From: Candidatus Porifericomitaceae bacterium
GTDB taxonomy: Bacteria > Pseudomonadota > Gammaproteobacteria > Porifericomitales > Porifericomitaceae
Direction of reading: 5' to 3'
Length of the DNA stretch: 64,000 nt
Assembly (NCBI GenBank): GCA_965212005.1
Contig: OZ243038.1
Location: 1,857,440 to 1,921,439 of the forward strand
Positions within the stretch are counted from its first letter, which is position 1. Each line of letters starts with the position of its first letter. This document shows, piece after piece, positions 4,069 through 21,463 of this stretch. A program made the translations under genes and the position numbers. The notes under the pieces are model-generated. The model saw only the letters and a list, made by a program, of their open reading frames with translations, searched no databases and was not told the origin of the DNA.

Positions 4069-5376
4069 ATGCAGGCTCCTCTAAGCAAGCCCAGCCAAAT
4101 GCTGATTGCAGCGGCAGCGGCCGGCAACCTGGTGGCGGTGCGGGCTGCCCTTTCCGCCGATGCCGACGTGCATGCCGATGACCTTTGGGGATCGGAAGCC
4201 GCGTTGCGTAAGGCGGCGTTTCGCGGCCATACCGCGATCGTATCCTGCCTGATCCAGGCGGGATCGGATGTAAACGTCGAGGATAAGGGAGGGCCGGGCG
4301 CTCCCTTGCGCCGCGCGGTGGAGGGAGGACACGTAGAGGTCGCGAAATTATTGGTCAATGCTGGCGCCGACGTAAATGCCGGTGAGGGAACGATTCTGCG
4401 CACTGCCGCCTGGAATGGACATACGGAGCTGGTTACTTTCCTGATAAAGGTGATGGGCCAGGTAGGCCTGGTCGGACAGGCCGCATTGAACGGAGCTGCC
4501 TGGCAGGGGCACTTGGGCGTGGTATGCATCCTGCTCGCTGCGGGGGTCACTCCCAAGGTGAAAAACACCAACAACATTAAATCTCCCCAGGTTCGCAAGC
4601 TGCTGCAGGAGGCAGTTAAGAAAGCACGGAAAGCCGCCGGTTCCGCCGCGGCTTCCGGGGCCAGGGCCTCCTCCGCGTCGCCCCGGAAAGCCAGGCCTGG
4701 CGGCAAAGCTGCAGTCTCCAGTACCGCCAAGCCTGGTCGGGCAGCGGCCGCCGCCGCCCGATCCAGTGTCCCCGTGGGCTCCGGTGCCCAGAACAATGCC
4801 GCCGTACAGGCATTGACGCGGGAGTCCTTGATCGATCGGTTGCTGAGTGCGGCCAAGGGCGGCTCTGCACAGGACGTGCGCCAGGCACTTGCCGCCGGTG
4901 CCGATATACAGGCGCGCGGCAATGCCGCCTTATTGATGAGTGCCTACCATGGCCACGCCAAGGTAGTGACCACCCTGTTGGGACGCGGGGCAAACGTGCA
5001 CGCCGAGGATCGGTGGGGGCCGGAGGCGGCCCTGCGCAATGCCGCCTATTTCAATCACGTGGAGACAGTGAAGGCGTTGCTTGCCGGCGGCGCCGATCCG
5101 AATGCCCGTGACGGCATGTTGCTGGAGGTCATCGAACTGGGCAACATTGTCATTTTCAAGCTGCTGCTGGAAGCGGGTGCCGACGTGCACGTACCGGACC
5201 TGCAGGGCAAGCCGGACGCCTGTCTTTGCTTTGCCGCCGAGGAAAGTCTCACTGCGCTAACGCGGCTGCTGCTTGTGCATGGAGCGGACCCCCATGCGGT
5301 GGATATCGTTCATGTTCCCAGCAACGAGATCAAAAAGATGCTGAGACAGGCCATACGCAAGCAGGAACAAGCCTGA
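4069..5376 (+). CDS. Ankyrin-repeat protein with a central Ala/Ser/Lys-rich low-complexity linker
   Basis: Repeated 33-aa ankyrin units (GHTAIVSCLIQAGSDVNVED, GGHVEVAKLLVNAGADVNA, GHAKVVTTLLGRGANVHAED and others) on both sides of a KKARKAAGSAAASGARASSASPRKARPGGKAA linker. GAGGGA Shine-Dalgarno before the ATG. Confidence 0.85.
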   Translation: MQAPLSKPSQMLIAAAAAGNLVAVRAALSADADVHADDLWGSEAALRKAAFRGHTAIVSCLIQAGSDVNVEDKGGPGAPLRRAVEGGHVEVAKLLVNAGADVNAGEGTILRTAAWNGHTELVTFLIKVMGQVGLVGQAALNGAAWQGHLGVVCILLAAGVTPKVKNTNNIKSPQVRKLLQEAVKKARKAAGSAAASGARASSASPRKARPGGKAAVSSTAKPGRAAAAAARSSVPVGSGAQNNAAVQALTRESLIDRLLSAAKGGSAQDVRQALAAGADIQARGNAALLMSAYHGHAKVVTTLLGRGANVHAEDRWGPEAALRNAAYFNHVETVKALLAGGADPNARDGMLLEVIELGNIVIFKLLLEAGADVHVPDLQGKPDACLCFAAEESLTALTRLLLVHGADPHAVDIVHVPSNEIKKMLRQAIRKQEQA

Positions 5377-5562
5377 TCCTTGCCGTGCGTCAGGCCGCCC
5401 GCCCGGTTACTGCCTAAGGCAAGGTTCCCCGGTCGGTCGTTCCGGCTGCCTGCTCAATCCGTGAAAAGGAGTACAATGACGTAAATTCCGAGCCCCCGGG
5501 GCAGGGAAGTTGTTCCTCTGCGCATACCGTAGACTTTCCCGCCAGGCGTCGCGTGTCCCATA

Positions 5563-6663
5563 ATGTCATCCTGCACCACTGCCGCCGATAAGGCCTACCA
5601 GCAGCGCAGCCTGTTGGGAGTTTCCCGCACCTTTGCCCTGACGATTCCGCAATTGCCGGATCCATTGGCCTGGGTAGTAGGCAATGCCTACCTGCTGTGC
5701 CGCATCGCCGATACGATCGAGGATGACAAGTTCCTGGAGCCTGCGCGTAAGCGGGAGATTTTCGAGCATTTCATGCGCGTGCTTGCGGCGCAAGGCGACG
5801 CCGACGCCTTCAGCCGGGAAATCTCTCCGTTGTTGGCCCGCGGGGCTTCGGCGGAAGAGTTGAACTTAATGACTCACGTTCCCGTGGTGTTGCGCGTCAC
5901 CGGCAGCATGAACGCGGTACAGCGTGCTTCGCTGCAGCGCTGCATCCGCATCATGGTGGACGGGATGGGGTTTTATCAGCAGCACGTCTCCTGCGCGGGC
6001 CTGCCGGACTTGTCTGCCATGGAAGACTACTGTTACTGCGTGGGCGGCGTCGTAGGTGAAATGCTGACGGAGATATTTTGCGATTATTCCGGGGAAATGA
6101 AACGTCACCAAGCAGAACTGCTGCGCCTGTCAGTCTCTTTTGGCAAGGGATTGCAGATGACCAACATTCTAAAAGACGCCTGGGAGGATCGGCGGCGCGG
6201 GATTTGCTGGTTGCCGCAGGAGATCTTTCAGGCTGCCGGTTGTGACCTGTCCGCGCTCCGCCCCGGACCGACCTGCGCCGGCTACCGCCAGGGAGTGCAG
6301 CGTCTGCTGGGAGTGGCCGGCGGCCACTTGCGCGATGCGCTGCGCTACACGTTGCTGATCCCGGCGCACGAGCGGGGGCTGCGCCGCTTTTGCGCCTGGG
6401 CCTTGGGCATGGCCGCGTTGACCTTGCGCCGCATCAGCCGCAATCCTGGTTTCCAGAGCGGCCAGGAAGTGAAGATCTCGCGCTACAGCGTGTATGCGAC
6501 CGCCGGGCTGAGCAGCCTGCTGATCGGCAATGATCGGGCGCTGCGTTTTCTGTTCGAGCAGGCAACGGCTGCGCTGCCGCCGCCGGTTGATCCTCCGGCT
6601 CTGCTCCCGGATGCCGCCGCCAGCCGCCGGCGCTTTGCCGCCGTCGGCACCGATCAAGCCTGA
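5563..6663 (+). CDS. Squalene/phytoene synthase family protein (trans-isoprenyl diphosphate synthase, head-to-head; HpnC/HpnD/CrtB-like)
   Basis: 366-aa ORF. It has the SRTFALTIPQLP and YLLCRIADTIEDD (first Asp-rich) motifs, and a second conserved region (YCYCVGGVVGEML...GKGLQMTNILKD). Confidence 0.8.
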   Translation: MSSCTTAADKAYQQRSLLGVSRTFALTIPQLPDPLAWVVGNAYLLCRIADTIEDDKFLEPARKREIFEHFMRVLAAQGDADAFSREISPLLARGASAEELNLMTHVPVVLRVTGSMNAVQRASLQRCIRIMVDGMGFYQQHVSCAGLPDLSAMEDYCYCVGGVVGEMLTEIFCDYSGEMKRHQAELLRLSVSFGKGLQMTNILKDAWEDRRRGICWLPQEIFQAAGCDLSALRPGPTCAGYRQGVQRLLGVAGGHLRDALRYTLLIPAHERGLRRFCAWALGMAALTLRRISRNPGFQSGQEVKISRYSVYATAGLSSLLIGNDRALRFLFEQATAALPPPVDPPALLPDAAASRRRFAAVGTDQA

Positions 6664-6842
6664 CCGTGCCGCTCGCACCCACGCGAGTGCCGTTACGCTC
6701 CATTGCGTGATCCGGCCTTGGCGACGGTCTGGCGCCTCAAAGAGTGCGCCGGTTGGCTCTGTGCGCCGTCCGTCCCGGATCGGTTGCGCCGGTCGCCCGG
6801 GTTGACTCACGCCCCGGGGAGCTCGCAGCGCAGGTGACGGCG

Positions 6843-7361
6843 ATGGAAGAAACGGTGAAACCGAAGCAACGGCGGACGCCGGTGCCGGCGCGCCTGCTGC
6901 GCGACCCAGGTCACCTGTTGGCTTTGGGCCTGGGCCTGGGAGCATCGCCGCTGCTGCCCGGCACCCTGGGCAGCCTGCTCGCCTTCCCCCTGTACCTGCT
7001 GCTGCAGCCGCTGGCCGTTTGGCAGAGCCTGCTGGTGGTGGCGGTCCTGGCCGCAGCGGGAATATACCTGTGTGGCCGGACGGCACGGGCTCTCGATCAC
7101 TCCGACCCGGGCGCGGTGGTATGGGACGAGGTAGTGGGTTGTTTGCTGGTCCTGGTCCTGGTCCCTTCCGGCTGGCATTGGCTGTTGCTGGGCTTCGTGC
7201 TGTTCCGTTGCTTTGACATGACCAAGCCCTGGCCGGTCAGCTGGGCGGATCGTCAGGTCCCGGGAGGAACGGGCATCATGCTGGATGACCTGTTGGCGAG
7301 TGTCTACGCGGTGGGCCTTACCTGGGGAGTGGCCTGGATGGGGGGGCATCTTTGGCATTAA
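6843..7361 (+). CDS. pgpA: Phosphatidylglycerophosphatase A
   Basis: From the ATG at 6843 the product is 172 aa (METVKPKQRR...), the same length as E. coli PgpA. It carries the LALGLGLGASPLLPGTLGSL, WDEVVG and FRCFDMTKPWPVSWAD motifs. The longer upstream ORF start is unlikely. Confidence 0.85.
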   Translation: MEETVKPKQRRTPVPARLLRDPGHLLALGLGLGASPLLPGTLGSLLAFPLYLLLQPLAVWQSLLVVAVLAAAGIYLCGRTARALDHSDPGAVVWDEVVGCLLVLVLVPSGWHWLLLGFVLFRCFDMTKPWPVSWADRQVPGGTGIMLDDLLASVYAVGLTWGVAWMGGHLWH

Positions 7362-7777
7362 GCGGCAGGAAGGAGAGGGAACCATAGCCCGCATTTCCCC
7401 GGTTGCCGAAAAACCGGGGATTACACCCGGAACCGGGTGGTGGGCGCATCCGGGGAGGAAGGACGCAGTCCTGTATCGAACCCATCCCTGCATGTGAGCG
7501 CCACCGCGACCCGTGTCGGCAACCATTCCCGGCAGTCCGCGCCCGATCAACGCAGGCGGTCGGCTGGAATACAGTCATCGAAGCTCGTGATAGCCACGGG
7601 CAAACGCCCCGCTCTCCGCTCCCTCGTCACCAGCGTCTCGTCACTCCATTCGTTGTGGGCGCAAGCATCAACCAGTGGGCGGATTGTGGGGGCGGGGTGC
7701 ATTGGAGTGGGGCAGCGGGGAATGGGCGGAGTGTACGCAGCAGGAGCAAAGGCCGCCGGTTCCGGGCAGGCCAATTC

Positions 7778-7926: not shown

Positions 7927-9582
7927 ATGCCAACCCTCGATTTCAAAGGCAAACCAATCGTTTACGCCCACCACCTTACCGTACCGTCAAGGCCGCTGGA
8001 GGTGGACGCGAAAAAATCTCTGCCGCCAAAGAGCAAAAAGCCCTCCCTCGACGATAACCTGATCATCCACGGCGACAACCTGCACGCGCTCAAGGCGTTG
8101 ATGCCGCGTTATGCGGGCAAAGTGAACTGCATTTACATTGACCCGCCCTACAACACCGGCAACGAAAAATGGATTTATAACGACAACGTGAACAGCCCGA
8201 TGATGAAGGAATGGCTGAAGGGCAAAAGCCCGGTGGACGGCGAGGATTTGGAGCGCCACGACAAATGGCTGTGCATGATGTGGCCGAGGTTGCAGTTGTT
8301 GAGGGAGTTGCTGGCAGAGGACGGGGTAATTTTTGTTTCTATTGATGATAATGAGCAGCATCGCTTGCGGATGATGATGGATGAGATTTTTGGGGAGGAG
8401 AATTTTATTTCAACTGTTATCTGGCACAAAATGGACAGCCCTAAAAATACAGCAATTCACATAAGCGAAGATCATGAAAGCGTACAGATTTTTGCAAAAA
8501 ATGCTGATATTTGGAGACCTAACAGATTACCAAGAACTGCGGAAATGCTAGCTCGGTATAAAAATCCGGATAATGACACCAGAGGACCGTGGTTGCTCAG
8601 TGATCTAGCTGCCAGAAATCGGTACTCGCGTGGACGCTACCCTATAACGACTCCTTCTGGGAACAGAATTAAAGGACCACCTGCTGGAAGTTTTTGGCGA
8701 GTAAGCAAGGAAAAATTTGATGAACTGGACGCGGATAATCGAATTTGGTGGGGAGAAACTGGTAATAACCGACCCGGGATAAAGCGATTTCTTTCAGAGG
8801 TTCAAGAAGGCGTTGTGCCTCGGTCTCTTTGGGAGTGGAAGGAGGTAGGAAGTACTCGACACTCAAAACAAGAATTGAGTGGAGTTATGTCCGCGCAGGC
8901 CTCCTCGGATATTTTCGTGACACCGAAACCTACGGGACTAATCAAACGTATCCTACAGATCGCATCAGACAAAAGCTCGGTTATCCTGGATTCTTTCGCT
9001 GGCTCTGGCACAACCGCCCATGCCATCCTTGCCCTCAACAAAGAAGACAGCGGCAACCGCAAGTTCATCCTTGTCGAATGCGAAGATAAGATCGCCGACA
9101 AAATCACCGCCGAGCGCGTCCGCCGCGTGATAAAAGGCGTCAAGCAATCAAAAGACGAAAACCTGAAAGCCGGCCTCGGCGGAAGTTTCACCTACTGCAC
9201 CCTGGGCGAAGAAATGAGCATCGAAAAAATGCTCACCGGCAAGAGACTCCCCGACTATGAAACCCTGGCCCGCCACCTTTTCTGGACCGCAACCGGACAA
9301 TCAGTAGACAAAATCCGCAACACAAGAGGCAAAGACGGCTTCTTCCATGAAACGAAAGACAGACTGTTCTACCTGGTTTACGAACCAAAACTTCCTTTCC
9401 TGCGCAGCACCGAATCCGCCCTGAACAGCGACCGCGCCGAACGGGTCGCCAAACAGGCAAAGACAAAAAAGAAAACCGCAGTCGTGTTCGCCACCCACAA
9501 ATTTGTCGGGCAAAAGGAACTAACCCGGATGGGAATAGTATTTTGCGGACTGCCATACGGGACTGCAACCAATCAAGGTTAA
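7927..9582 (+). CDS. mod: Type III restriction-modification DNA methyltransferase (Mod subunit, N6-adenine, beta class)
   Basis: The GDNLHALKAL...VNCIYIDPPYNTGNE motif IV lies near the N-terminus, and the SAM-binding motif I (ILDSFAGSGTTAHA) lies near the C-terminus. This order is typical of Type III Mod proteins (compare EcoP15I Mod). Confidence 0.85.
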   Translation: MPTLDFKGKPIVYAHHLTVPSRPLEVDAKKSLPPKSKKPSLDDNLIIHGDNLHALKALMPRYAGKVNCIYIDPPYNTGNEKWIYNDNVNSPMMKEWLKGKSPVDGEDLERHDKWLCMMWPRLQLLRELLAEDGVIFVSIDDNEQHRLRMMMDEIFGEENFISTVIWHKMDSPKNTAIHISEDHESVQIFAKNADIWRPNRLPRTAEMLARYKNPDNDTRGPWLLSDLAARNRYSRGRYPITTPSGNRIKGPPAGSFWRVSKEKFDELDADNRIWWGETGNNRPGIKRFLSEVQEGVVPRSLWEWKEVGSTRHSKQELSGVMSAQASSDIFVTPKPTGLIKRILQIASDKSSVILDSFAGSGTTAHAILALNKEDSGNRKFILVECEDKIADKITAERVRRVIKGVKQSKDENLKAGLGGSFTYCTLGEEMSIEKMLTGKRLPDYETLARHLFWTATGQSVDKIRNTRGKDGFFHETKDRLFYLVYEPKLPFLRSTESALNSDRAERVAKQAKTKKKTAVVFATHKFVGQKELTRMGIVFCGLPYGTATNQG

Positions 9583-9622: not shown

Positions 9623-11719
9623 ATGAGCAAAGAAACAGGAAAGCTCGCACAAAGAGCAAAACAGCTTTACGAAGAAGAAAATTGGAACGAATTGATCCCA
9701 GTAGCCACTGAGTGGATTGATTTGGAACAAGAACCGGAAAGGCAAGCACAGGCATACAATGACCGTGGCTTTGCCTACGCCCGAAAAGGCGATTATGACC
9801 ATGCCATTGCAGATTTTGATAAGGCAATAGCATTGGCACCCCGCGATGCGATGGCATACAGCGGGCGTGGCCTTGTCTACGCCGAAAAAGGTGATTATGA
9901 CCGTGCCATTGCAGATTGTGATAAGGCAGTAAGATTGGCACCCCGCGATGCGATAGCATACCGCCGGCGTGGCATGATCTACGCCAAAAAAGGTGATTAT
10001 GACTGTGCCATTGCAGATTTTGATAAGGCAATAGCATTGGCACCCCGCGATGCGCTGGCATATAGCCGGCGTGGCGATGCCTACTACGAAAAAGGCGATT
10101 ACGCCCGTGCTATTGCAGATTTTGATAAGGCAGTAGAATTGGCACCCCGCGATGCGCTGGCATACAGTGGGCGTGGCATGTTCTATGTTCAAACAGGAGA
10201 TTATGCCCGTGCCATTGCAGATTTGGGTAAGGCAATAAAAAGGGATCCTCGCGATGCGATGGCATACCGCTGGCGTGGCATGGCCTACGCCGAAAAAGGC
10301 AATTATGCCCGTGCCATTGCAGATTGTGATAAGGCAATAGAATTGGTTCCCCGCGATGTGATGGCATACAGCTGGCGTGTCAGGTCCTACATCGAAAAAG
10401 GCGATTATGCCCGTGCCATTGCAGATTGTGATAAGGCAATAAAATGGGATCCCTGCGATGCGATGGCATACCGCTGGCGTGTCTTTGTCTACGCCCGAAA
10501 AGGCGATTATGACTGTGCCATTGCAGATCTTAATAAGATAATAAAATTTACTCCCCAGGATGCGATGGCATACCGCTGGCGTGGCATAGCCTACGCCCGA
10601 AAAGGCGATTATGACCAGTCATTTGATGACCTAAACAAAGCGGTAAAACTTGATCCAGCACTACCATTTCGCATTCCAGAAACTTATATCGCAGATCAGA
10701 TAAAAACCATCTTTAAAACTGAGGATAAAACAAAATATGAAGCCTTTAAATTCTATTTTAGATTATCACAAGCAATTAAGGTCTTACAGAAAAAATTGTT
10801 TTATGCGAAAAAAACTGGAGTTGCCCATTACACATCCTTTCATACGATCAAACATCTTGGCCAAAAGGGGCGTTTTCGGCTTTACAACGCAGCCTATATG
10901 AATGACCCGGAAGAAGGGCGTATATTTTCTGAAATAATGAAAGAAGATCATAAGGTAGACGTAAGGAAATTTTATCCAGATAACGAAAACCTGTCTCATC
11001 TCTCTCCGGCCTATATAGGCAGTTTCGTCCAATTGGATTCCAGTGAACGGGATAAACTATTTCTGTGGCGAACGTATGGAAAACATGAGGCGAAGGAAGC
11101 GGCCGGATGCTGCCTGATCTACAGGCAGATGTGCTTTGCAAAAAGCTATCAACCCCAAATCGGCGCCATGCAACAACAACAATTGCAATATGATTCCCTA
11201 TCAACAGCGCAAACAGTAAAGAGTAAAAAACCAGAATCCAGTCGGGACACCAAACCGTGTCTTTATAAAATCATCTATAGGAACACGAAAGACCACAAAA
11301 AGCTCTCCCAAGAATTAAAAAAGCTTGCAGAATGCCTGAATAACATAAAGGATTTTATAGAAGGAATAGAACACAAAGAGGACAACAAAAACATATTAGA
11401 ACTTGCCCGTGCACTGCTTGACAGTATCCGTTTCCTTTTCAAAGGAAGCCATTACAGTGAGGAAAAGGAAGCCCGGGTGTGCAGTATTCGTTATTACAAG
11501 GCAGGTGGGACACAGGAATCGGATGAAATAAAAGTGGACACGGAACAGATTCCGCCACGTTTCTATTTGGATACCCCGGAAGCCTTCCAATTCAGCAAAG
11601 TAATACTCGGCCCGGGAGCACAGAATATCCCGGAATGGGAGCGGTGGTTCAAGGAACAATTTAAGAAGGATGTGGAAGTGCGACACTCCCAAATACCCTA
11701 CGGAACGCGTTCTTCCTAA
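9623..11719 (+). CDS. TPR-repeat protein (about 9 TPR units) with a C-terminal DUF2971-like domain
   Basis: N-terminal 34-aa repeats (GDYDRAIADCDKAIELAPRDAMAYSWRG...). The C-terminal ~350 aa carry the VAHYTSFHTIKHL...RLYNAAYMNDPEEG signature, which I associate with the DUF2971 family. AT-rich codon usage unlike the flanking genome. Confidence 0.6.
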   Translation: MSKETGKLAQRAKQLYEEENWNELIPVATEWIDLEQEPERQAQAYNDRGFAYARKGDYDHAIADFDKAIALAPRDAMAYSGRGLVYAEKGDYDRAIADCDKAVRLAPRDAIAYRRRGMIYAKKGDYDCAIADFDKAIALAPRDALAYSRRGDAYYEKGDYARAIADFDKAVELAPRDALAYSGRGMFYVQTGDYARAIADLGKAIKRDPRDAMAYRWRGMAYAEKGNYARAIADCDKAIELVPRDVMAYSWRVRSYIEKGDYARAIADCDKAIKWDPCDAMAYRWRVFVYARKGDYDCAIADLNKIIKFTPQDAMAYRWRGIAYARKGDYDQSFDDLNKAVKLDPALPFRIPETYIADQIKTIFKTEDKTKYEAFKFYFRLSQAIKVLQKKLFYAKKTGVAHYTSFHTIKHLGQKGRFRLYNAAYMNDPEEGRIFSEIMKEDHKVDVRKFYPDNENLSHLSPAYIGSFVQLDSSERDKLFLWRTYGKHEAKEAAGCCLIYRQMCFAKSYQPQIGAMQQQQLQYDSLSTAQTVKSKKPESSRDTKPCLYKIIYRNTKDHKKLSQELKKLAECLNNIKDFIEGIEHKEDNKNILELARALLDSIRFLFKGSHYSEEKEARVCSIRYYKAGGTQESDEIKVDTEQIPPRFYLDTPEAFQFSKVILGPGAQNIPEWERWFKEQFKKDVEVRHSQIPYGTRSS

Positions 11720-11753
11720 TCCCACTCAAAGCCCGCCAACAAACCACAGCGAA

Positions 11754-11850
11754 CGGCGGTCGTGTCTACCACCCACAAGTTTAGGGGGCAGAAGGAACGG
11801 ACGGAGAGGGGAGTAGTATTTTGCGAATTGAGACCCTTTTCACTACAATG
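11754..11850 (+). repeat. Diverged duplicate of the mod 3' terminus (last ~30 codons), located after the TPR/DUF2971 gene
   Basis: 11757-11832 (cggtcgtgtctaccacccacaagtttagggggcagaaggaac...gtagtattttgcg) aligns at about 70-75% identity with mod 9476-9560 (cagtcgtgttcgccacccacaaatttgtcgggcaaaaggaac...atagtattttgcg). The translation AVVSTTHKFRGQKERTERGVVFCELRPF compares with Mod AVVFATHKFVGQKELTRMGIVFCGLPYG. Confidence 0.8.
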
Positions 11851-11855
11851 AAGTA

Positions 11856-12962
11856 GTGGCAATGACTCCCTTCTCTCCATCGCACTGGGCTGCTTCCTGT
11901 ACACACCAGGAATGCTCATTACACCAGCTATCGCCATATATAGGAAAGCTAAAGAGCACGATCGCTCAAGACTTGATTCTGAAATACAGTAAACCAGGTG
12001 AGTTAGTAGTTGATGCGTTCTGTGGCAGCGGGACCGTACCATTAGAAGCTGCCCGCCTGGGGCGCAGAGTATTTGCCTCTGATACGAGTAGATATGCCGT
12101 CACACTAACTAAAGGGAAACTTAAGGCGCCAAACACAGCTAATGCTGCGCTTGCCTCTCTTGATAGTGTTTTGAAACACAGAAAGTCCCTGCCTACACCG
12201 GATATCAGGTATGTTCCTCGTTGGGTTAGAGCCTTCTTTCACCCCCACACACTCAAAGAAACGTTGCAATTTACAAGGTATCTCAAGCAGGAGCGTCAAT
12301 ATTTTCTGCTGGCATCTTTACTTGGCATTTTACATCATGAGCGTCCTGGGTTTCTATCGTTTCCAAGTAGTCACCTTGTTCCTTATCTTCGATCAAAAAA
12401 ATATCCCAGGGCAAGCTATCCTGCTCTTTATAACTATCGTCCACTGATTCCGCGCTTGACGGCAAAAATAAACCGAGCATTAAAACGACCGCCAAAAGAA
12501 GAATTGACCAAGTGGGTTGAAGGCATACGCCAGTCCTCTGTTGGATCTGTCAATTTGCCTAACTCTATTGACTGTGTTATTACAAGTCCACCCTATATGA
12601 ATGCGCTTGACTACGGGCGTGATAACCGTCTTAGGCTCTGGTTTTTGGGAGAATATGATATAGAATCATTAGATCGTCCCCTTGGGACTATTCAAGGTTT
12701 TACGCATGCAATAACGTCACTTGCCAAACAATTACAGCAAAAAGTGCGAGTGGGTGGCTATTGTATTTTTGTTATCGGCGAAAAATTGATAAGAAAGAAA
12801 GACAGGCTCCCTTCTGAAGAGTTAATGGAAATTTTTACAGTTCATGCGCCGGCAATTAGACTATGTAATATTATTAGTGACGTGATTCCTGATATTCGTC
12901 GCTCCCGCAGATATATTGCTGGAGTGAAGCAGGAAAATATTCTTGTATTTAGAAAATACTAA
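11856..12962 (+). CDS. DNA methyltransferase (N4-cytosine or N6-adenine, SPPY type)
   Basis: Motif I (ELVVDAFCGSGTVPLEAARLGRRVFASD) near the N-terminus and motif IV (ITSPPYMNALDYG) near the C-terminus. An SPPY motif is more typical of N4C methyltransferases. Start is GTG at 11856 or ATG at 11862. Confidence 0.75.
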   Translation: MAMTPFSPSHWAASCTHQECSLHQLSPYIGKLKSTIAQDLILKYSKPGELVVDAFCGSGTVPLEAARLGRRVFASDTSRYAVTLTKGKLKAPNTANAALASLDSVLKHRKSLPTPDIRYVPRWVRAFFHPHTLKETLQFTRYLKQERQYFLLASLLGILHHERPGFLSFPSSHLVPYLRSKKYPRASYPALYNYRPLIPRLTAKINRALKRPPKEELTKWVEGIRQSSVGSVNLPNSIDCVITSPPYMNALDYGRDNRLRLWFLGEYDIESLDRPLGTIQGFTHAITSLAKQLQQKVRVGGYCIFVIGEKLIRKKDRLPSEELMEIFTVHAPAIRLCNIISDVIPDIRRSRRYIAGVKQENILVFRKY

Positions 12963-12964
12963 TC

Positions 12965-15400
12965 ATGCGTAGAAATATTCCAGAGAAAACACAGTTTCTT
13001 GGAAAGAAGATAGATCGATTCCCTGACCATGAAATCAAAACGCATATTGCTACAGGGAACAATGGACATCTATTTCTTGCGTTTAATGAATCAACAAAAA
13101 GCAAACTTGCATTCAAAATTATTCCTGTCGATAATCTACTCAATGGATATTTAAATGAGGCAAAAAAACCTAACTCTTTAGAAAATCCATCCGTTGTTAA
13201 ATGCCATGATGTTGTTAAATATCCTGATTCAAAATTAAATTGCATAGTGTTCATATATGACTACGTTGAAGGTGAAAATCTTAGGGATTATATGAAGGAA
13301 AAACGATCAAATATAGATATACCATTCATTGAGAATTTTTTGAAAACCATGTTTGGATTATTATATGAACTTGATAGACGTGAATCTCAGCATGGTGATT
13401 TGCATCCTGGCAATATACTTGTTGCACACTCTGCATATGATTTATCAAGAAAAAAAACCTTCCGTGTGACAGATTTTGGTGTCGGAGAGTTAATTGGACA
13501 GGATGCTCATGCGAATGACTACCTGAATGTTGCAAACACGCTCAGGAAATTACTGGGTTGTGTAAAATATGGTGAGTGCGAGGGGCGGGACAGATATATT
13601 TACAATATTCTTAAGAATGATTTTTTGGGTAGGCACCTATTTGAAACAGACACTAGCGCAGACCCCTTGGCTTGCAACCCTTGGGGGCTGAACAACAAAC
13701 TAGAAAAATTGGATGCAGAGTGGAGAGACCAAAAACAGCCGGATCAAGATAAGCTTGAAACACCTTTTGATTATCCCAATTGTGAGCAAATTGGAAACTC
13801 TCATTTATTGCTTAAAAGTCTTTACTCAGACCGACTCCTTGGCTTATCTGAAATTCAGGAAAAAGCCAACCTCATGCTAACTGGACCTCGCGGATGCGGA
13901 AAGACAACGGTCTTTCGCGCTCTGAGTCTGGAATATTTGATTTCAACTCATGAGAGCAGTCCATCTGACTTGAAGTATATTGGCATCTATTACAGATGTG
14001 ACTACCTATACTTCTCCTTTCCTAGATATAAGCATCCCGAACGTACCGAGGCATTGGATATCCCCATGCATTTTCTTATTGTTACGCTGTTAGCGGCTAC
14101 ACTGGAGCAAATAGGTGCATGGGCAAAAGAATATTTCTCAGATCAATTAGCAAAGGAAGAGGAAGCTCTTGTTTCGGAACTGTGGAACATTTTTGAATGG
14201 GATGCCCCAGATGCTCCGAGCGGCAATCAATTGACTACTTTGGTCAATAGACTAAGAAAAGAAAGCAAGCGTGCCGTAAATAAACAACAGGTTGCTCATG
14301 TCGCAGCCGAACCTATCCAAGGCTATTTTGGCCCGGGAATTATGTTGCAAGCCTGTGCTTTTATTAGAAAAAAATTTACTTGTTTAGAAAATCGTCCTTT
14401 TTACTTCTTTATAGACGATTATTCTGCCCCAAAGATTACCAAAGAGTTGCAGGCAAATCTTAATCGATTAGTGATGCATCGCAGTCCAGATGTTTTTTTT
14501 AAACTCTCGACGGAAAGTCCTGTCTCTTTTGTGCGATATGATATTGATGGTAAGCAATTTGTTGAAAAGCGCGAATACGTTTTGTTAAATCTTGGATTAA
14601 GATATATTAAAGATGATTCAAATGATACTTTGGCTTTTCTTGAAGATCTTTTTAAGCGCCGATTTGCAGAGGTCTCAGGCTATCCTGTCGAAACACTTGA
14701 AGAGCTTTTAGGATCAAGACCACGCAATGAGAATGATACGGCTCGTGCCTTCCTAGATAAAGAAAAAAGGAATTATTATGCTGGACAAGATACAGTCGCT
14801 GCTATGTGTAGCGGTGATATTCACTATATGATTCGTCTTGTTGCCAGAATGGTAGAAGAAAATGGGGGTAAAGAAAGTCTCACGGATTGCGACACAATAC
14901 CTAAAATTTCAATGGAAAAGCAAAATGAATCAATTCGTGCTGCAGCAGGCGACTTCATGGAATCAATACGCACATTGCCTAAGACAGGCCCAATACTAAC
15001 AGAGGTTATAACTGCATTTGGAAATGTAGCACATTCTTATCTTATGCATGCAGTATCAAGAAATGAAGGAAAGGAAAATCCTCACCAGGCATCAAGGATA
15101 GAACCGTACGAAGGGTTGAATCTTTCTACTGAAGCGGAAGATATTCTTGAAGAGCTACTGCGTTACTCGGTACTCATTGAAGATCCTCGTGGAAAGAGCC
15201 GCAGAGGTGAGGTTGTCTCGAGATTTTACCTGCGACGTTACATAATCCCACATTTCCGCTTAACATTTAGTAAACGAGATTCCATTCAATTGGAAAATAG
15301 CCAGATTGAAATGCTCTTGCGTGACCCTAAAAAATTCAAAAACAGGATGATGTTGAAATTGAAAAGACATTTCAGTCAAAAGGATCTGTTTGAGTTATGA
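12965..15400 (+). CDS. Eukaryotic-like Ser/Thr protein kinase domain fused to a C-terminal P-loop NTPase (811 aa)
   Basis: Kinase subdomains in order: Gly-rich loop (IATGNNGHLFLAF), the lysine (LAFKII), the HGDLHPGNILV catalytic loop and the DFG motif (VTDFGVGE). These are followed by Walker A (LTGPRGCGKTT) and Walker B (FYFFIDDYS). AT-rich. Confidence 0.7.
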   Translation: MRRNIPEKTQFLGKKIDRFPDHEIKTHIATGNNGHLFLAFNESTKSKLAFKIIPVDNLLNGYLNEAKKPNSLENPSVVKCHDVVKYPDSKLNCIVFIYDYVEGENLRDYMKEKRSNIDIPFIENFLKTMFGLLYELDRRESQHGDLHPGNILVAHSAYDLSRKKTFRVTDFGVGELIGQDAHANDYLNVANTLRKLLGCVKYGECEGRDRYIYNILKNDFLGRHLFETDTSADPLACNPWGLNNKLEKLDAEWRDQKQPDQDKLETPFDYPNCEQIGNSHLLLKSLYSDRLLGLSEIQEKANLMLTGPRGCGKTTVFRALSLEYLISTHESSPSDLKYIGIYYRCDYLYFSFPRYKHPERTEALDIPMHFLIVTLLAATLEQIGAWAKEYFSDQLAKEEEALVSELWNIFEWDAPDAPSGNQLTTLVNRLRKESKRAVNKQQVAHVAAEPIQGYFGPGIMLQACAFIRKKFTCLENRPFYFFIDDYSAPKITKELQANLNRLVMHRSPDVFFKLSTESPVSFVRYDIDGKQFVEKREYVLLNLGLRYIKDDSNDTLAFLEDLFKRRFAEVSGYPVETLEELLGSRPRNENDTARAFLDKEKRNYYAGQDTVAAMCSGDIHYMIRLVARMVEENGGKESLTDCDTIPKISMEKQNESIRAAAGDFMESIRTLPKTGPILTEVITAFGNVAHSYLMHAVSRNEGKENPHQASRIEPYEGLNLSTEAEDILEELLRYSVLIEDPRGKSRRGEVVSRFYLRRYIIPHFRLTFSKRDSIQLENSQIEMLLRDPKKFKNRMMLKLKRHFSQKDLFEL

Positions 15401-16437
15401 ATGATACCTTATTGAAGGCAGATGAACAGTTACTTGTTATGGACTGGCCCAGTCTGCAAAAGATTGATGTACCTTCACTCAAGGCCAGTGACTTATATTT
15501 AGTATGTGTGGGCTTTGAAGATCGGGCTATAGAAACACTTCATCGAATCTGTGAGGCTGGAAGCAGGGAATTTTCGCTTGTTCTAGTGAACTATCGTCCA
15601 GAATATAAAGAGAATAGAAGAGAAGAGATTCTTGAAATCGCACGGCGGGCGGATTTGACAGTGCACGAGATTGTTTATGACCGAGAGAACCCGGCAGGTA
15701 TTGGAAAAGAGCTAGACTTCTCAGCAGATCGGATATTTGTGGATATTTCTGGCATGTCGCGTCTTCTCATAGTCCAAGTCTTGGTAGCACTAATCGGCAT
15801 TCAGGAACGGGCAATAAATATAATTTATGGTGAAGCAGCAGAATATTTCCCTTCTAAAGAACAATTCGAACGAGATCAGGCAAATGATGACAACAATTTG
15901 GAACATAGCTATCTATCTTCCGGGATTTTTGAAATAGCAATAGCGCCCGAATTAAGTTCTGTATCTATGTTAGGTGAAGCAATTAGATTGATAGCATTTC
16001 CATCACTTGATCATGTGCAACTCACCAATGTAATGCAAGAATTGCAACCTACTTATGCAGAATTTATTGATGGCATACCACCTGATGAAGGTAATGAATG
16101 GCGAACGGAAGCAATTCGAATAATTAATCATAGGACTATTAGTGCAGTTAAAAACCCTGTAACTCATCAAGCATCTACACTTGATTATAGAAAGACGTTA
16201 AAAATTTTGCTAGATATATACGAAGAGCGCAGCATGTTTGACCGACTTGTAATTGCGCCAACTGGCAGCAAAATGCAGGCTGTTGCCGTTGGTTTATTGA
16301 GATCTTTTCTTGACGATGTGCAAATTGTTTATCCAACGCCACATATTTTTACACACCCCAAGAGATATACATCTGGACTAAGTCAAATATATGAAGTCCA
16401 TATTCCATCTAAAGAAATACTTGCAAAATTAAAGTGA
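15397..16437 (+). CDS. Hypothetical protein with a Rossmann-like fold and possible CARF/SLOG-like sensor motifs. Translationally coupled to the kinase gene.
   Basis: ATGA overlap with the upstream stop. Beta-strand/Gly patterns (LYLVCVGFEDR, FVDISGMSRLLIV, LVIAPTGSKMQAV) are reminiscent of CARF D-I-T-G-G-x-K signatures. The assignment is speculative. Confidence 0.35.
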   Translation: MNDTLLKADEQLLVMDWPSLQKIDVPSLKASDLYLVCVGFEDRAIETLHRICEAGSREFSLVLVNYRPEYKENRREEILEIARRADLTVHEIVYDRENPAGIGKELDFSADRIFVDISGMSRLLIVQVLVALIGIQERAINIIYGEAAEYFPSKEQFERDQANDDNNLEHSYLSSGIFEIAIAPELSSVSMLGEAIRLIAFPSLDHVQLTNVMQELQPTYAEFIDGIPPDEGNEWRTEAIRIINHRTISAVKNPVTHQASTLDYRKTLKILLDIYEERSMFDRLVIAPTGSKMQAVAVGLLRSFLDDVQIVYPTPHIFTHPKRYTSGLSQIYEVHIPSKEILAKLK

Positions 16438-16502
16438 CTGCAGCAACCGGTAATAATGACAGTCATTTTTAAGGGAAGGAAATTGAGGTGGAAACAAAAT
16501 AA

Positions 16503-19049
16503 ATGCAACTCAAAACCTACCAACAAAAGGCCCTTGAACAATTAGACCGCTATCTTGAGGCGCTCAAAGAAGAGCGTCTGAAAAGTGAAAAAGCGGCGAC
16601 ATTTTTTGCGGAGCAGAACAGTGACGCTCCTGAAGACCTGAAAAATTATCCGCGCGCCGCATGGCAAACTCTGACGAAACAGGGCGTTCTCCCCAGCGTT
16701 GCAACGGGTCGAAATACCGAAATCCCCGACCCTATCCCCCGCACTGCAACCTCCGGCGACCCCATCCCCCACGTCTGCCTGAAAGTGCCCACCGGTGGCG
16801 GCAAGACGCTGCTGGGCGTCGCCGCCCTGGAACGTATCCAGCGGGACCCGGGCTTTGTGCTGTGGATTGTGCCGACCAGGGCGATTTACGAGCAGACTAT
16901 CATGGCTTTCCGAACCCGTGAACATCTCTACCGGCAGATGCTGGAGCAGATTTCCGGCGGCAAGGTGAAGCTGCTGCAGAAAACCGACCGCTTCACCCGG
17001 CAGGATACTGAAAACTACCTGTGCGTGATGATGCTGATGCTGCCGTCCGCCAACCGGCAGAGAGGAAAGGATTTCCTCAAGATATTCCGCGACAGCGGCA
17101 ATTACCCTTCTTTCTTTCCTGAACAGGACGACTTCGCCGCCAACCGGAAATTTGCCGAGAGGCATCCCGACCTTGAGCAAAACGAAACCGACGATTGGGC
17201 CAAACAAAGCCTTATCAATGTACTCAAACAGGTCCGCCTCACCGTGATTCTGGATGAGGCGCACAAGGCGTATGGACAAAATGACGCGAACAACAAGGAG
17301 TTTGTAAAGTCCGTCAACCGCCTGAATCCCCACTTTGTACTCGAACTTTCCGCCACGCCGAAAATCGGCATCAGTAATATCCTGGTTAACATATCGGGGA
17401 CCGAACTGTATGACGAGGAGATGATCAAACTGCCCATTGAGATTCACAGTTTCAGTAATTCCGACTGGCAGTATGCGCTTGCCCAAACCCAGGCGAAGTT
17501 AAGCCAACTGGAAAAAGAGGCGCGGCAACTAAAACAAAGAGAAAATCGCTATATTCGCCCTATCGCCCTGGTGCGGGTGCAGCGAACCGGCAAAGGGCAA
17601 AGAGAGCGGGGATACATTCATGCCGAGGATGCGCGGGAACATTTGATACAAAACCTTGCCGTGCCGGAAAATCAGATCCGGATTCAATCATCGGAACAAA
17701 AGGAACTCGAGGGTGAGGATTTGTTGAGTGAGGCCAGTCCCGTCCGCTGGATTATTACCAAAGACGCCCTGAAGGAGGGCTGGGACTGCTCGTTTGCCTA
17801 CGTGCTGGCGTTGCTGGACAACACCACGGCCACAACCGCCATGACGCAGATGGTCGGGCGGGTGATGCGGCAGCCCCATGCGCGCCGGATCGGGAACAGC
17901 AAGCCGCTGAACCAATGCTATATCTACTGCTATAACCAGGACGTGGGCAACGCGATTAAAAGTGTGAAAGCCGGCCTGGACAGAGGGGGACTGACGGGGC
18001 TTGGGGATGCCATTCTCGGCTACGGCGACGGTGAGGACGATGCGCCGAAGCCGATAACCGTGAAACGCCGGGGAAGATATAAGCGGTTGAACATCTTTCT
18101 TCCGCAGGTCTTGCACATACAGGGGAAAAAGTGGCGTCCCATTGATTACGACCGCGATATTCTGGGCGCGGTGGACTGGGGCAAGATTAACGGCGGTGGA
18201 GCGACCAATCTGGACGACAAAGACGTCATTCAGGAAATCAAGGCCACGGTTGATATTCAGGGGGAAAGTGATGTTTCCCAGAAAACGCTTGATACCGGGG
18301 AAAGTGTGACCCTGGATTATTTTGTCCGGCGGCTTACCGACATGCTTCCGAATCCGTGGCAGGCGGCGCGCGTGGCGGAGCGCTTTCTGAAACGGCACAA
18401 GGACAAAAAGCACGATGATGCGCAATTGCTGATCAACCGGATTTATCTTTCGGAAGTGCTAAGGCGCAGGGTGAAAACGGCCATTGACGGCAAGGCCGAG
18501 TCGGTGTTCCGGGGCAAGGTGCAGCAGAACCAAATCCGGTTTCATCTGGAAACCGATGAGCGGCTGGATTACGAACTGAACAGGTCGTTTGAGGTTTTTG
18601 TTTCCAGCAGAGAAAGGCGACTTCATGGTCCGCACAAGCCGATACAGCAGAGCCTTTTTTCTCCGGTTTACGAAAGCAGCTTTAACGATCTGGAAAAGGA
18701 CTTTGCGCTTTATCTGGACACGGATCAGGCAATCTATTGGTGGCACAGAATCGCTGCACGGCAGGCGTATTCCCTTCAGGGTTGGCGGCGGCATCGAGTG
18801 TATCCCGATTTTGTAGCCTGCCGGAAAAACGATGGAAAGCTGTTGATCCTGGAAACAAAAGGCATTCACCTGAAAGGCAACGAGGACACCGATTACAAGC
18901 AAAAATTACTGGAGATGCTGGAGAAAACGTATGAAACCGCCCTTGAAAGAGGCCAGTTCAAAGTACGGGAGCCGCCCGCCCAATTCAGGATGATGTTTGA
19001 GGATACATGGCCGGAGGACATGAACGAACTCCTCCAGGAAGGCAATTAG
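16503..19049 (+). CDS. res: Type III restriction endonuclease (Res subunit, SF2 helicase-like)
   Basis: Helicase motif I (LKVPTGGGKT), motif II DEAH-like (VILDEAHKAYG), and a QxxGRxxR-like motif (MTQMVGRVMRQP). The size (848 aa) and the position next to mod fit Res. Confidence 0.8.
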   Translation: MQLKTYQQKALEQLDRYLEALKEERLKSEKAATFFAEQNSDAPEDLKNYPRAAWQTLTKQGVLPSVATGRNTEIPDPIPRTATSGDPIPHVCLKVPTGGGKTLLGVAALERIQRDPGFVLWIVPTRAIYEQTIMAFRTREHLYRQMLEQISGGKVKLLQKTDRFTRQDTENYLCVMMLMLPSANRQRGKDFLKIFRDSGNYPSFFPEQDDFAANRKFAERHPDLEQNETDDWAKQSLINVLKQVRLTVILDEAHKAYGQNDANNKEFVKSVNRLNPHFVLELSATPKIGISNILVNISGTELYDEEMIKLPIEIHSFSNSDWQYALAQTQAKLSQLEKEARQLKQRENRYIRPIALVRVQRTGKGQRERGYIHAEDAREHLIQNLAVPENQIRIQSSEQKELEGEDLLSEASPVRWIITKDALKEGWDCSFAYVLALLDNTTATTAMTQMVGRVMRQPHARRIGNSKPLNQCYIYCYNQDVGNAIKSVKAGLDRGGLTGLGDAILGYGDGEDDAPKPITVKRRGRYKRLNIFLPQVLHIQGKKWRPIDYDRDILGAVDWGKINGGGATNLDDKDVIQEIKATVDIQGESDVSQKTLDTGESVTLDYFVRRLTDMLPNPWQAARVAERFLKRHKDKKHDDAQLLINRIYLSEVLRRRVKTAIDGKAESVFRGKVQQNQIRFHLETDERLDYELNRSFEVFVSSRERRLHGPHKPIQQSLFSPVYESSFNDLEKDFALYLDTDQAIYWWHRIAARQAYSLQGWRRHRVYPDFVACRKNDGKLLILETKGIHLKGNEDTDYKQKLLEMLEKTYETALERGQFKVREPPAQFRMMFEDTWPEDMNELLQEGN

Positions 19050-19189
19050 CGTATTTTTTAGGAGGCACGTATCAGGGATCATCTGCGCAGTCCAGCCTGC
19101 TGCTCCTGCCCCAGCGGGGCTTTTTGAGCATTGCCGGGGCGCACAGGTTGAGATTTCAAAAGCCATCGCCTATATTTCAGGGACCACCA

Positions 19190-21463
19190 ATGTCAACCCC
19201 TCCGAAAAAATCAACTAAGTCTATAAAAACCATTGGCGAATTCCTTGACTGGACAGGGAAACAGGAAGGCTCTTTGTTTCTCTATCGCGGAGTGTCTGCT
19301 CCCTACATGGAAATGGAAGCATCGGCATATCGCAGAATAAAGGAGAACCAGGAGGAAGATACGGTTCCTTCAAAAATATTTATCAATTATCACGAGCGAC
19401 TTCTGGATAGAGCCAGATTGGAGGGATTTGACGATCAACAGGGCAAGGATCCTTCCGACCTGGAATTACTTGCCAGGTTACAGCACTATGGCGCGGCAAC
19501 ATGCCTGATTGATTTTACCGCAGACCCTTTGATCGCATTGTGGTTTGCTTGCCAGGGAAGCGGGCAGACAAATGGAAAAGTCGTTGCCATGGCAACGGGT
19601 GATGTCCAAGACTTCGCCGCAGTGAAACACGAAGACTTGAAGAAGCCTGTCAAGGAATTCCTCAAGGAGGAAACACTGTGGAAATGGTCTCCTCGGCGCC
19701 AAAACAATCGCATTATTGCCCAGAAGTCAACGTTTATATTCGGAAAAAGTACGATCCAGGAGAGTTGCTACAAGACTGTCAAGATAGACAAAGAAAGCAA
19801 AGGAAACATTATTAATGAATTGTGGAATAGATTTGAAGTTACTGAGCAGTCCCTTTTTGGCGATTTTGTCGGTTTCTCTCTTGCCAATGCCCACGACAAA
19901 CCTTACAGCGACTATAACTCAGAAGACTATTTTATTTTTGGACTAACCTGCAGTCAGAGAAAAGAGTATCAGAAAGCGATAGATTATTACGACAAGGCGA
20001 TAGCGATTAACCCTGAATATACCGAGGCATATCACAATCGTGGTCATGCAAAGGATGCCTTGAGAAAGTATAAAGGAGCGATATCGGATTATGACAAGGC
20101 GATAGCCATTAATCCTAAATTGGCCGAGGCATATAACAATCGCGGCAATGCAAAGGATGCCATGGGCGAGCATAAAGGAGCGATAGCGGATTATGACAAA
20201 GCGATAGCCATTAATCCTAAATTGGCCGAGGCATATCACAATCGTGGCCATGCAAAGGATGCCATGGGCGAGCATAAAGGAGCGATAGCGTATTATGATA
20301 AGGCGATAGCCATTAACTCTCAATATGTCGAGGCATATACCAATCGCGGAGCTGCAAAGGATGCCTTGGGTGATCATCAAGGAGCGATAGCGGATTACGA
20401 CAAGGCGATAGCCATTAACCCTGAATATGCCGATGCATATAACAATCGCGGCAATGCAAAGAATGTCTTGGGCGAGCATAAAGGAGCGATGGTGGATTAT
20501 GGCAAGGCGATAGACATTAATCCTAAATATGCCGATGCATATTATAATCGCGGCAATGTAATGTATGCCTTGAGCGATCATCAAGGAGCGATAGCGGATT
20601 ATGACGAGGCGATAGCCATTAACTCTCAATATGCCGAGGCATATACCAATCGCGGCCATGCAAAGTATTCTCTGGGTGATCCTCAAGGAGCGATAGCGGA
20701 TTATGACAAGGCGATAGTCATTAATCCTAAATCGGCCGAGGCATATAACAATCGCGGAAATGCAAAGAATGTCTTGGGCGACCATGAAGGAGCGATAGCG
20801 GATTATGGCAATGCGATAGCCATTAATCCTCAATATGCCGAGGCATATAACAATCGCGGCAATACAAAGGGTGCCATGGGTGACCCTCAAGGGGCGATAG
20901 CGGATTATGACAAGGCGATAGTCATTAATCCTAAATTGGCCGAGGTATATAACAATCGCGGAAATGCAAAGAATGTCTTGGGCGACCATGAAGGAGCGAT
21001 AGTGGATTATGACAATGCGATAGCCATTAATCCTCAATATGCCGAGGTATATACCAATCGCGGCAATGCAAAGGGTGCCTTGGGCGACCCTCAAGGGGCG
21101 ATGGCGGATCATGATAAGGCGATAGCCATTAATTCTGAATTGGCCATGGCATATAACAATCGCGGCAATGTAAAGAATGTCTTGGGCGACCATGAAGGAG
21201 CGATGGCGGATTATGACAAGGCGATAGCCATTAATCCCCAATTGGCCATGGCATATAACAATCGCGGCAATGCAAAGAATGTCCTGGGCGACCGTGAAGG
21301 AGCGATAGCGGATTATGACAAGGCGATAGCCATTAATCCTGAATTTGCCATGGCATATAAAAATCGCGGCGATGCAAAGAAAGCCCTGGGCGACCGTGAA
21401 GGAGCGATGGCGGATTATGACCAGGCAATCGCCATTGACCCATCAATACGCCGAGGCATATAA
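19190..21463 (+). CDS. FRG-domain protein fused to a long TPR array (about 16 units)
   Basis: Start at the ATG 19190 (MSTPPKK...). The N-terminal 250 aa carry FLYRGVSAPY and LARLQHYGAATCLIDFTADPLIALWFAC, resembling the FRG-domain signature (FRGQ / QHYGLPTRLLDWT). The rest is 34-aa TPRs (AIADYDKAIAINPKLAEAYNNRGNAKDAMGEHKG). The C-terminus AIAIDPSIRRGI is shared with the downstream family. Confidence 0.7.
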   Translation: MSTPPKKSTKSIKTIGEFLDWTGKQEGSLFLYRGVSAPYMEMEASAYRRIKENQEEDTVPSKIFINYHERLLDRARLEGFDDQQGKDPSDLELLARLQHYGAATCLIDFTADPLIALWFACQGSGQTNGKVVAMATGDVQDFAAVKHEDLKKPVKEFLKEETLWKWSPRRQNNRIIAQKSTFIFGKSTIQESCYKTVKIDKESKGNIINELWNRFEVTEQSLFGDFVGFSLANAHDKPYSDYNSEDYFIFGLTCSQRKEYQKAIDYYDKAIAINPEYTEAYHNRGHAKDALRKYKGAISDYDKAIAINPKLAEAYNNRGNAKDAMGEHKGAIADYDKAIAINPKLAEAYHNRGHAKDAMGEHKGAIAYYDKAIAINSQYVEAYTNRGAAKDALGDHQGAIADYDKAIAINPEYADAYNNRGNAKNVLGEHKGAMVDYGKAIDINPKYADAYYNRGNVMYALSDHQGAIADYDEAIAINSQYAEAYTNRGHAKYSLGDPQGAIADYDKAIVINPKSAEAYNNRGNAKNVLGDHEGAIADYGNAIAINPQYAEAYNNRGNTKGAMGDPQGAIADYDKAIVINPKLAEVYNNRGNAKNVLGDHEGAIVDYDNAIAINPQYAEVYTNRGNAKGALGDPQGAMADHDKAIAINSELAMAYNNRGNVKNVLGDHEGAMADYDKAIAINPQLAMAYNNRGNAKNVLGDREGAIADYDKAIAINPEFAMAYKNRGDAKKALGDREGAMADYDQAIAIDPSIRRGI

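Follow-up and report, generated by a model that had tools for sequence, protein, structure and literature searches.

The window analysed here, a 64 kb stretch of DNA, carries a Type III restriction-modification (RM) operon in which, most probably, two cargo modules have been stacked between mod and res by recombination at conserved gene ends, with no integrase taking part. Sequence comparison points to this origin through the seam between the modules: because a relic of the res start is fused there to a relic of the mod 3′ end, and both parent arrangements are known from related loci, the seam can be read as the joint between two operons. An earlier note on this DNA had taken a repeat of the mod tail as the boundary of an inserted cassette; the copy is statistically significant and appears to mark the edge of a stacked cargo module.

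Organization of the Type III operon

In Type III RM systems, Mod is a beta-class N6/N4 DNA methyltransferase and Res combines an SF2 helicase with an endonuclease. The type is defined by ATP-dependent cleavage and hemimethylation, and its canonical operon consists of mod followed directly by res. Domain analysis recovered both subunits in the window (Table 1). Mod matched Pfam N6_N4_Mtase (PF01555; 2.9e-39), and the PADLOC model MTase_III (PDLC03644) spans residues 1-545 of its 551 residues (E 2e-169). Res matched Pfam ResIII (PF04851; 1.5e-13) as well as PADLOC REase_III (PDLC03653) over residues 1-840 (E 1e-208). On these matches both proteins are predicted to be full-length Type III subunits, each with the hallmarks of its own subunit. 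The canonical adjacency is missing from the window, where four genes and two relics, 6.9 kb in all, lie between mod and res.

The cargo genes of the window point the same way as mod and res, those of cargo unit 2 are closely spaced, and the cargo is probably co-transcribed with the RM operon. GC content is 60-70% in the flanking chromosome, ~50-55% in mod and res, and 35-46% in the MT2-kinase-CARF block (12400-16600 vs 4000-7600). This composition indicates an operon foreign to its present genome, with cargo that is itself unlike the mod/res frame around it.

The product of the cargo unit 1 gene aligned with DUF2971 (PF11185) over profile positions 1-89 of 89, at 17.1 bits (E 0.014) against a gathering score of 22. 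Its homologues in related loci (numbered with the prefix L throughout) scored 24.9 bits in L021, above the gathering score, 14.4 in L094 and 11 in L002. We treat the DUF2971 label of the window gene as weakly supported.

In cargo unit 2, the second methyltransferase gene, MT2, is 72-74% identical to the gene lying directly 3′ of mod in L005, L006 and L030. The kinase/ATPase gene matched Pkinase (4.9e-13) and ORC-CDC6-like (2.9e-53) in Pfam and CARF_STK_AAA (1e-28) in PADLOC, and the CARF-like protein gave no Pfam match.

Table 1. Features of the Type III operon and of the adjoining TPR-repeat array (positions in the window)
Feature	Position	Strand	Remarks
mod, Type III DNA methyltransferase, intact	7927..9582	+	N6_N4_Mtase; functional tail 9474-9582
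Cargo unit 1, TPR-repeat protein with C-terminal DUF2971-like domain	9623..11719	+	TPR families E 1e-63
Candidate res-start relic (res codons 1 to ~9)	11719..11744	+	overlaps TAA stop of TPR gene
Predicted mod 3′-end relic	11745..11830	+	~last 35 codons, without the final ~6 codons; blastn E 1e-10, nhmmer E 7e-13
Predicted deletion scar, MT2 5′-end remnant (codons ..YNEV) joined to truncated tail relic	11831..11855	+	alignment
Cargo unit 2, gene 1: MT2, second DNA methyltransferase	11856..12962	+	Pfam N6_N4_Mtase, UPF0020
Cargo unit 2, gene 2: Ser/Thr kinase + ORC/CDC6-like AAA ATPase	12965..15400	+	Pfam/PADLOC
Cargo unit 2, gene 3: CARF-like protein	15397..16437	+	PADLOC CARF6 models 2e-14
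res, Type III restriction helicase-endonuclease, intact	16503..19049	+	ResIII; REase_III
TPR-repeat gene with N-terminal FRG domain	19007-21463	+	overlaps res end by 43 nt
TPR-repeat genes 2-5	21755-24304, 24602-27571, 27869-29326, 29776-31197	+	tandem array

Beyond res, the region 19007-31510 holds five tandem plus-strand TPR-repeat genes, each followed by a conserved spacer of ~330 nt. The 13-mer TACCCTACGGAAC occurs at 11694-11706 on the plus strand, in the 3′ end of the TPR/DUF2971 gene, and once on the minus strand in each of the five spacers (21547-31288), giving six matches vs 0.03 expected. We considered it as a meaningful link and set it aside: no similarity extends past the 13-mer, and with a repeat present in five copies the match is probably fortuitous.

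A decayed copy of the mod tail

Comparison of the window with itself, by local alignment and blastn, paired 9474-9547 with 11752-11825 over 74 nt, ungapped, at 77.0% identity (E 1.1e-10), which bears out the repeat of the mod tail that the earlier note had placed at about 11757-11850. The blastn self-comparison detected no further repeat of comparable strength for the mod tail region in the 64 kb. A DNA profile of the mod tail, built from the last 150 nt of mod at 22 related loci and run with nhmmer, matched the window at exactly two places, 9427-9565 (E 1e-36) and 11752-11830 (E 7e-13). Weaker homology, ~69% to the clade consensus, extends the copy upstream to ~11745. The longest identical run shared by tail and copy is 13 nt.

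The reading frame of the copy runs from 11756 to a stop codon at 11849-11851, and its peptide TAVVSTTHKFRGQKERTERGVVFCELRPFSLQ is the counterpart of KTAVVFATHKFVGQKELTRMGIVFCGLPYG in Mod. The peptide comparison made earlier is sound in substance, with a frame start (11757) that has to be shifted by one base. To gauge decay we scored 15 tail positions, each at least 90% conserved among 119 Mod homologues and covered by the copy. The functional tail keeps 14 of the 15 conserved residues and the copy 9, the changes in the latter including F to S, A to T, L to R and G to E. The copy is thus predicted to be a decayed, non-functional pseudogene fragment from the 3′ end of a second mod gene.

We sought a donor by pairwise identity with 22 functional tails and 11 relics; all values fell between 48% and 77%, none of them prominent. 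The relic is 60-77% identical to all functional tails examined, and because it is about equally distant from every one of them, its donor is not identifiable.

The TPR gene and the tail copy lie in a common frame. Read-through or fusion was considered as the reason and rejected, since the res-start relic between the two is in another frame; as homologues of the TPR gene also end at the same stop, we regard the shared frame as coincidental.

A composite seam between the two cargo modules

The 2.1-kb TPR gene had been described as lying exactly between the two tail copies. Its position stands, although "exactly" does not, since 26 nt of what appears to be a decayed res start intervene. Within this stretch, ATCCCACTCAAAGCCCGCCAACA matches the res start ATGCAACTCAAAACCTACCAACA at 17 of 23 positions. 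At that stringency, the plus strand of the whole window contains only the relic site and the true res start (16503), and shuffled windows yield 0.03 res-start matches on average. When the cargo region was compared by plain blastn with the res of the window itself, the match was 20 nt at 85%, which is not significant (E 2.2).

Related loci place a res start at the same point. The window reads TAATC at the TPR stop and its relatives TAATG, and the window junction TAATCCCACTCAAAGCCCGCCAACA corresponds in position to TAATGCAACTCAAAACCTACCAACA in the relatives. The homologous TPR/DUF2971 gene of L021 ends in TAATG, the ATG of which is the res start, and in L094 a TAATG res start likewise follows the homologous gene; both coincide in position with the window relic. 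In L002 and L004 a DUF2971-type gene directly adjoins res, whose ATG lies two bases past the stop. Taken together, the exact position, the parallels in other loci and the shuffle test make a short, decayed res-start relic credible. The switch from res to mod tail falls at about 11745, and we read the order across the seam as the stop of cargo 1, res codons 1 to ~9, mod tail, a deletion, and cargo 2.

The deletion is apparent from alignment with L005, L006, L030 and L017, relative to which ~90 nt are gone from the window, running from the last codons of the tail through its stop codon and the intergenic region to the start codon and ~6 opening codons of MT2. MT2 homologues start MYDIKKYNEV, and the window retains ..YNEVVAM with an in-frame stop ahead of it, so that MT2 must start at GTG 11856 or ATG 11862, with an N terminus ~10 codons shorter than that of its homologues. 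Because those ~90 nt are missing, the 5-nt spacing between the stop of the copy and MT2 reflects a secondary deletion and not a native junction. The alignment does not support a clean displaced tail as the nature of the second copy, since the 3′ end of the copy has been deleted together with the start of MT2.

Cargo in the mod-res slot of related loci

To place the seam in an evolutionary context, we compared loci from two scans with the Mod protein, one covering one genome per species (80 loci) and one covering metagenomes (80 more), together 160 loci kept from more than 1,000 matches. The 80 genome-scan loci come mostly from uncultured bacteria, many of them of sponge-associated lineages. 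No same-species genome was found, nothing among the scan matches listed being closer than 72%, and the comparison loci are all ~70% identical to the window. Because no same-species genome was found, the event is not reconstructable from the empty site of a near relative. Among the matches listed, the closest proteins, P0002 and P0005, sit in different contexts.

Canonical mod-res adjacency (~30 nt spacing) was observed in 41 of the 70 scorable loci among those listed. Where res is less than 60% identical (distant relatives), it lies ~30 nt past mod in 40/49 scorable loci, and the other 9/49 have intervening DNA. Where res is at least 60% identical (the close clade), mod and res stand 0.5-6.7 kb apart in 20 of 21 loci.

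The content of the slot varies by locus. The MT2-kinase-CARF trio is present as cargo in L005, L006, L017 and L030, and three of these loci (L005, L006 and L030) have the order mod-MT2-STK-CARF-res without a TPR gene. TPR/DUF2971 homologues lie between mod and res in L002, L004, L021, L083, L084 and L094, and directly upstream of mod in L010; the cargo of L027 includes a TPR protein in which the DUF2971 part was not detected. Lipase_3 proteins, DUF6978+DUF1828 pairs, a PIN-containing pair and a HicAB-like toxin-antitoxin pair also occur. Both parent arrangements of the window locus therefore appear to exist separately: the search for an empty site recovered relatives without the TPR gene, and L005, L006 and L030 represent the locus in that state.

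Several further features of these loci were observed. In L017, three ORFs in ~2 kb (11626-13566) have been inserted past the mod stop, ahead of the MT2 upstream region, and the tail is not duplicated there, so not every insertion in the mod-res slot leaves a relic. A HicB antitoxin/HicA toxin-like pair, recognized by eye at 7800-8270 of L019, is frequent in the slot or at its edge, and was also seen in L001, L006, L012, L015, L044, L045, L046, L055, L081 and L083. In a Poriferihabitaceae MAG (L010, 1-14206) the window's cargo genes are arranged differently. The stretch upstream of the current mod begins with MT2-kinase-CARF and continues with an N-terminal fragment of mod, three tail relics and a TPR/DUF2971 gene; between the current mod and res stand another TPR gene, a relic of the res head and an ORF of 268 aa.

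The subunit genes themselves also vary. Across the Mod proteins P0001-P0120, near-identical N- and C-terminal regions surround at least four unrelated central (target-recognition) segments, as judged by eye, and the central segment of the window Mod groups with proteins of a different C-terminal type; mod itself looks mosaic. On the 3.9-Mb contig of L082, which encodes the 75%-identical Mod P0005, gene calling splits res into two overlapping ORFs of 182 aa and 693 aa (11868-14440), which suggests a frameshifted and possibly inactive gene.

Recurrent relics and recombination between them

Extra mod-tail copies were found in L002, L010 (three), L019, L045 (three), L055 (two), L094 and L103, always in the orientation of mod and nearly all 5′-truncated. 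Duplicated tails near other Type III mod genes, as foreseen in the earlier note, are thus present in seven related loci. In the window, L002, L010, L019, L045, L055 and L094, 5′-truncated tail copies lie downstream of an intact mod, with different genes after each. Extra res-head copies occur in L002, L004, L006, L010, L012, L019, L021, L044, L045, L055, L083 and L084. Two loci present the mirror image of the window, a cargo block between two res heads; the repeat measures 73 nt in L021, 97% identical to the locus's own res, and 69 nt at 90% in L010. L019 carries mod1, cargo, a tail relic, more cargo, a 157 nt res head and then a complete mod2-res2, which we regard as an intermediate arrangement.

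The res-head/mod-tail seam of the window recurs three times in L045 and once each in L055 and L094. L094 reproduces the window architecture, with mod, TPR/DUF2971, a TAATG res head joined to a tail relic that is well preserved, and then a second TPR/DUF2971 gene. Breakpoints are diverse, ranging over tail-profile positions 1-75 and res nt 21-191, and the seams of the window, L094, L045 (j2/j3) and L055 break within ~10 nt of one another. This ~10-nt clustering of four seams could reflect common descent, microhomology or site preference.

The pair L055 and L045, whose distal cargo is ~97% identical, captures recombination between relics. The left part of the L055 seam and its upstream flank correspond to L045 j2, and the right part and its downstream flank to L045 j3; the switch point lies inside the tail relic, and L045 has 1.5 kb extra between j2 and j3. 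Because the L055 seam is a hybrid of the two L045 seams, a 1.5-kb cassette was lost or gained via homologous crossover between tail copies. The proposal that the mod 3′ end is a hotspot of recombination and cassette exchange gains support from this crossover and from the recurrence of such relics in related Type III loci.

Origin of the seam

Cargo that lies between mod and res is framed by a mod tail on the left and a res head on the right, and we infer that these two conserved gene ends serve as portable homology arms when cargo moves between related operons. The first seam would have formed when a mod-TPR/DUF2971-res operon and a mod-MT2-STK-CARF-res operon were joined and the res body and mod body between them were lost. 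The break would have fallen in an A-rich stretch, where res codons 7-9 (CAA CAA AAG) resemble the lysine-rich mod tail (AAG AAA AAG CAG AAA). A tail-flanked unit of this kind could be copied into a related locus by a RecA-type double crossover, one exchange joining mod body to mod body and the other joining the downstream relic to the recipient's functional tail; Campbell-type insertion would be an alternative mode of entry. The unit would be removable again through crossover between tail copies. The window would later have shed ~90 nt at the relic/MT2 junction. Its relic would now be a scar and not an active site, being too diverged to recombine efficiently (77% identity, longest identical run 13 nt). 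Possible routes to the present arrangement are tandem operons followed by deletion, as in L019, one-ended homology-facilitated illegitimate recombination, and acquisition of a pre-formed unit by homologous recombination.

A purely local origin, in which tandem Type III operons underwent one microhomology-mediated deletion of ~4 kb covering res1 and mod2 with no cassette mobility, is an unlikely account of the whole. Tandem mod genes do occur in L019 and L031, and in L019 a truncated res1 stands directly before a complete mod2; further mod fragments lie upstream of the current mod in L010 and L055, and the junction in the window offers A-rich microhomology. This account leaves unexplained, however, why the same type of seam follows the same TPR/DUF2971 gene in L094 with other content downstream, and the hybrid seam of L055, set against L045, requires recombination within relics. 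Tandem operons with a deletion are best seen as a possible first step towards stacking by recombination at gene ends rather than as an alternative to it.

Much less probable is site-specific integration, which the earlier note had named first: a cassette with its own mod tail would have entered an att site at the mod 3′ end, regenerated the gene and displaced the old tail. Such an event would account for a gene lying between two same-orientation tail copies, the upstream one completing an intact mod, and for several seams breaking within ~10 nt of each other. Yet the insert is a single 2.1-kb TPR ORF without a recombinase, and no integrase, transposase or resolvase domain was detected in the window ORFs tested (those from 7.9 kb onward, save a few), in line with the earlier remark that no recombinase is visible. 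The two tails share no identical core; this point is weak alone, as decay could have erased one. The res-start relic between cargo and tail copy is not predicted by att duplication, breakpoints differ among the other loci, the res-head duplications of L021 and L010 run in mirror image, and the insertion at this place in L017 came with no tail duplication. The proposed att-site integration consequently did not hold up.

Equally, there is little to recommend the idea that the tail copy has been kept for a present function, as a promoter or translation-initiation region for MT2 or as a small ORF, and we consider it very improbable. The deletion junction did create a promoter-like pair (TTGCGA, 17-nt spacer, TACAAT; 11821-11849) just before the shortened MT2 start, and the relic frame is open from 11720 to 11851. 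However, it was the deletion junction, rather than conserved tail sequence, that gave rise to these hexamers; promoter-like sites in the region are not enriched (22 found vs 16.5 +/- 4.2 expected), and the promoter and terminator scan gave a signal no higher than background. The copy has moreover lost conserved residues and offers no plausible start codon or ribosome-binding context, and the extent of the relic varies among other loci.

Chance similarity or a low-complexity artefact, which the shortness of the segment (74-86 nt) and its partly A-rich 5′ end might suggest, is refuted by the E values (1e-10 in the self-comparison of the window, 7e-13 with the clade profile), by the shared orientation, frame and position-specific conserved codons, and by parallel relics in at least seven other loci.

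Comparison with known modular loci

Displacement and orphan-module arrays were reportedly described in Rhs and CDI loci by Jackson in 2009 and Poole in 2011. In the serial displacement of T6SS effector-immunity modules, recombination is anchored in a conserved segment upstream, and the 3′ fragments that it displaces pile up downstream; homology-facilitated illegitimate recombination and plain homologous recombination have been proposed as mechanisms (Kirchberger 2017, PMC5361080). The operons studied here share with Rhs, CDI and T6SS loci a conserved anchor at which a new module enters, leaving the old 3′ fragment and its companions downstream in the same orientation and 5′-truncated, and recombination in the repeated ends adds or removes modules, as between L055 and L045 (1.5 kb). 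Unlike those loci, the anchors here are the genes for both subunits of a Type III restriction enzyme and not for a toxin, and both ends are conserved, giving two-sided res-head/mod-tail fusions. What is displaced here is a methyltransferase C-terminus that does not vary, with no polymorphic toxin tip and cognate immunity gene, and the cargo is unrelated to toxin-immunity pairs, except for the HicAB-like pair and PIN modules in some loci.

The gene for PrrC sits in the Type IC locus EcoprrI as one fixed insertion, and a guardian function has been demonstrated for the protein (review PMC12707154). As there, non-RM genes are lodged here in an RM operon, with co-transcription probable; unlike PrrC, the slot lies between Type III mod and res and takes many cargoes across genomes, and any coupling to the enzyme is putative.

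Alleles of Type III mod, for example in Haemophilus, reportedly exchange the central target-recognition region via conserved 5′ and 3′ flanks (PMC1557822). The conserved mod 3′ region is a recombination substrate in both cases. That exchange is a specificity swap inside mod with no duplicated tails or cargo, whereas here whole genes downstream of mod move.

An integron comprises an intI integrase, an attI site and attC sites with imperfect inverted repeats. The Type III operons resemble integron arrays in that unrelated genes stand in one orientation, with short composite boundaries, downstream of a fixed platform. They differ in that no integrase was found in the tested ORFs and that attI/attC structure and site-specific breakpoints appear to be lacking; the boundaries here appear to be fossils of coding sequence and not palindromic attC sites, and exchange appears to be homology-dependent. 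A literature search, incomplete in its coverage, brought up no account of cargo being stacked between the mod and res genes of a Type III system, which is weak evidence of absence.

Implications

By itself the relic is an ordinary pseudogene scar, and its interest lies in what the locus reveals: unrelated accessory genes have repeatedly settled in the mod-res slot of one widespread Type III lineage, with the conserved ends of both enzyme genes apparently serving as handles for recombination. As a tentative generalization, one that may well prove too broad, the close-clade Type III operons could form a homology-armed cassette platform in sponge-associated and other uncultured bacteria, on which cargo is stacked, swapped and lost by homologous recombination alone, with no dedicated recombinase. 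The cargo would then consist of accessory genes, probably for defence; they might be co-expressed with the restriction enzyme and possibly coupled to it functionally.

If the pattern is general, it would provide a recombinase-free route by which defence genes spread and accumulate, and position inside an RM operon would mark uncharacterised genes as defence candidates. By this token, examples would be the TPR-DUF2971, DUF6978+DUF1828 and Lipase_3 proteins and the trio of methyltransferase, kinase/ATPase and CARF-like protein. Tools that demand adjacency of mod and res will miss such systems or split them.
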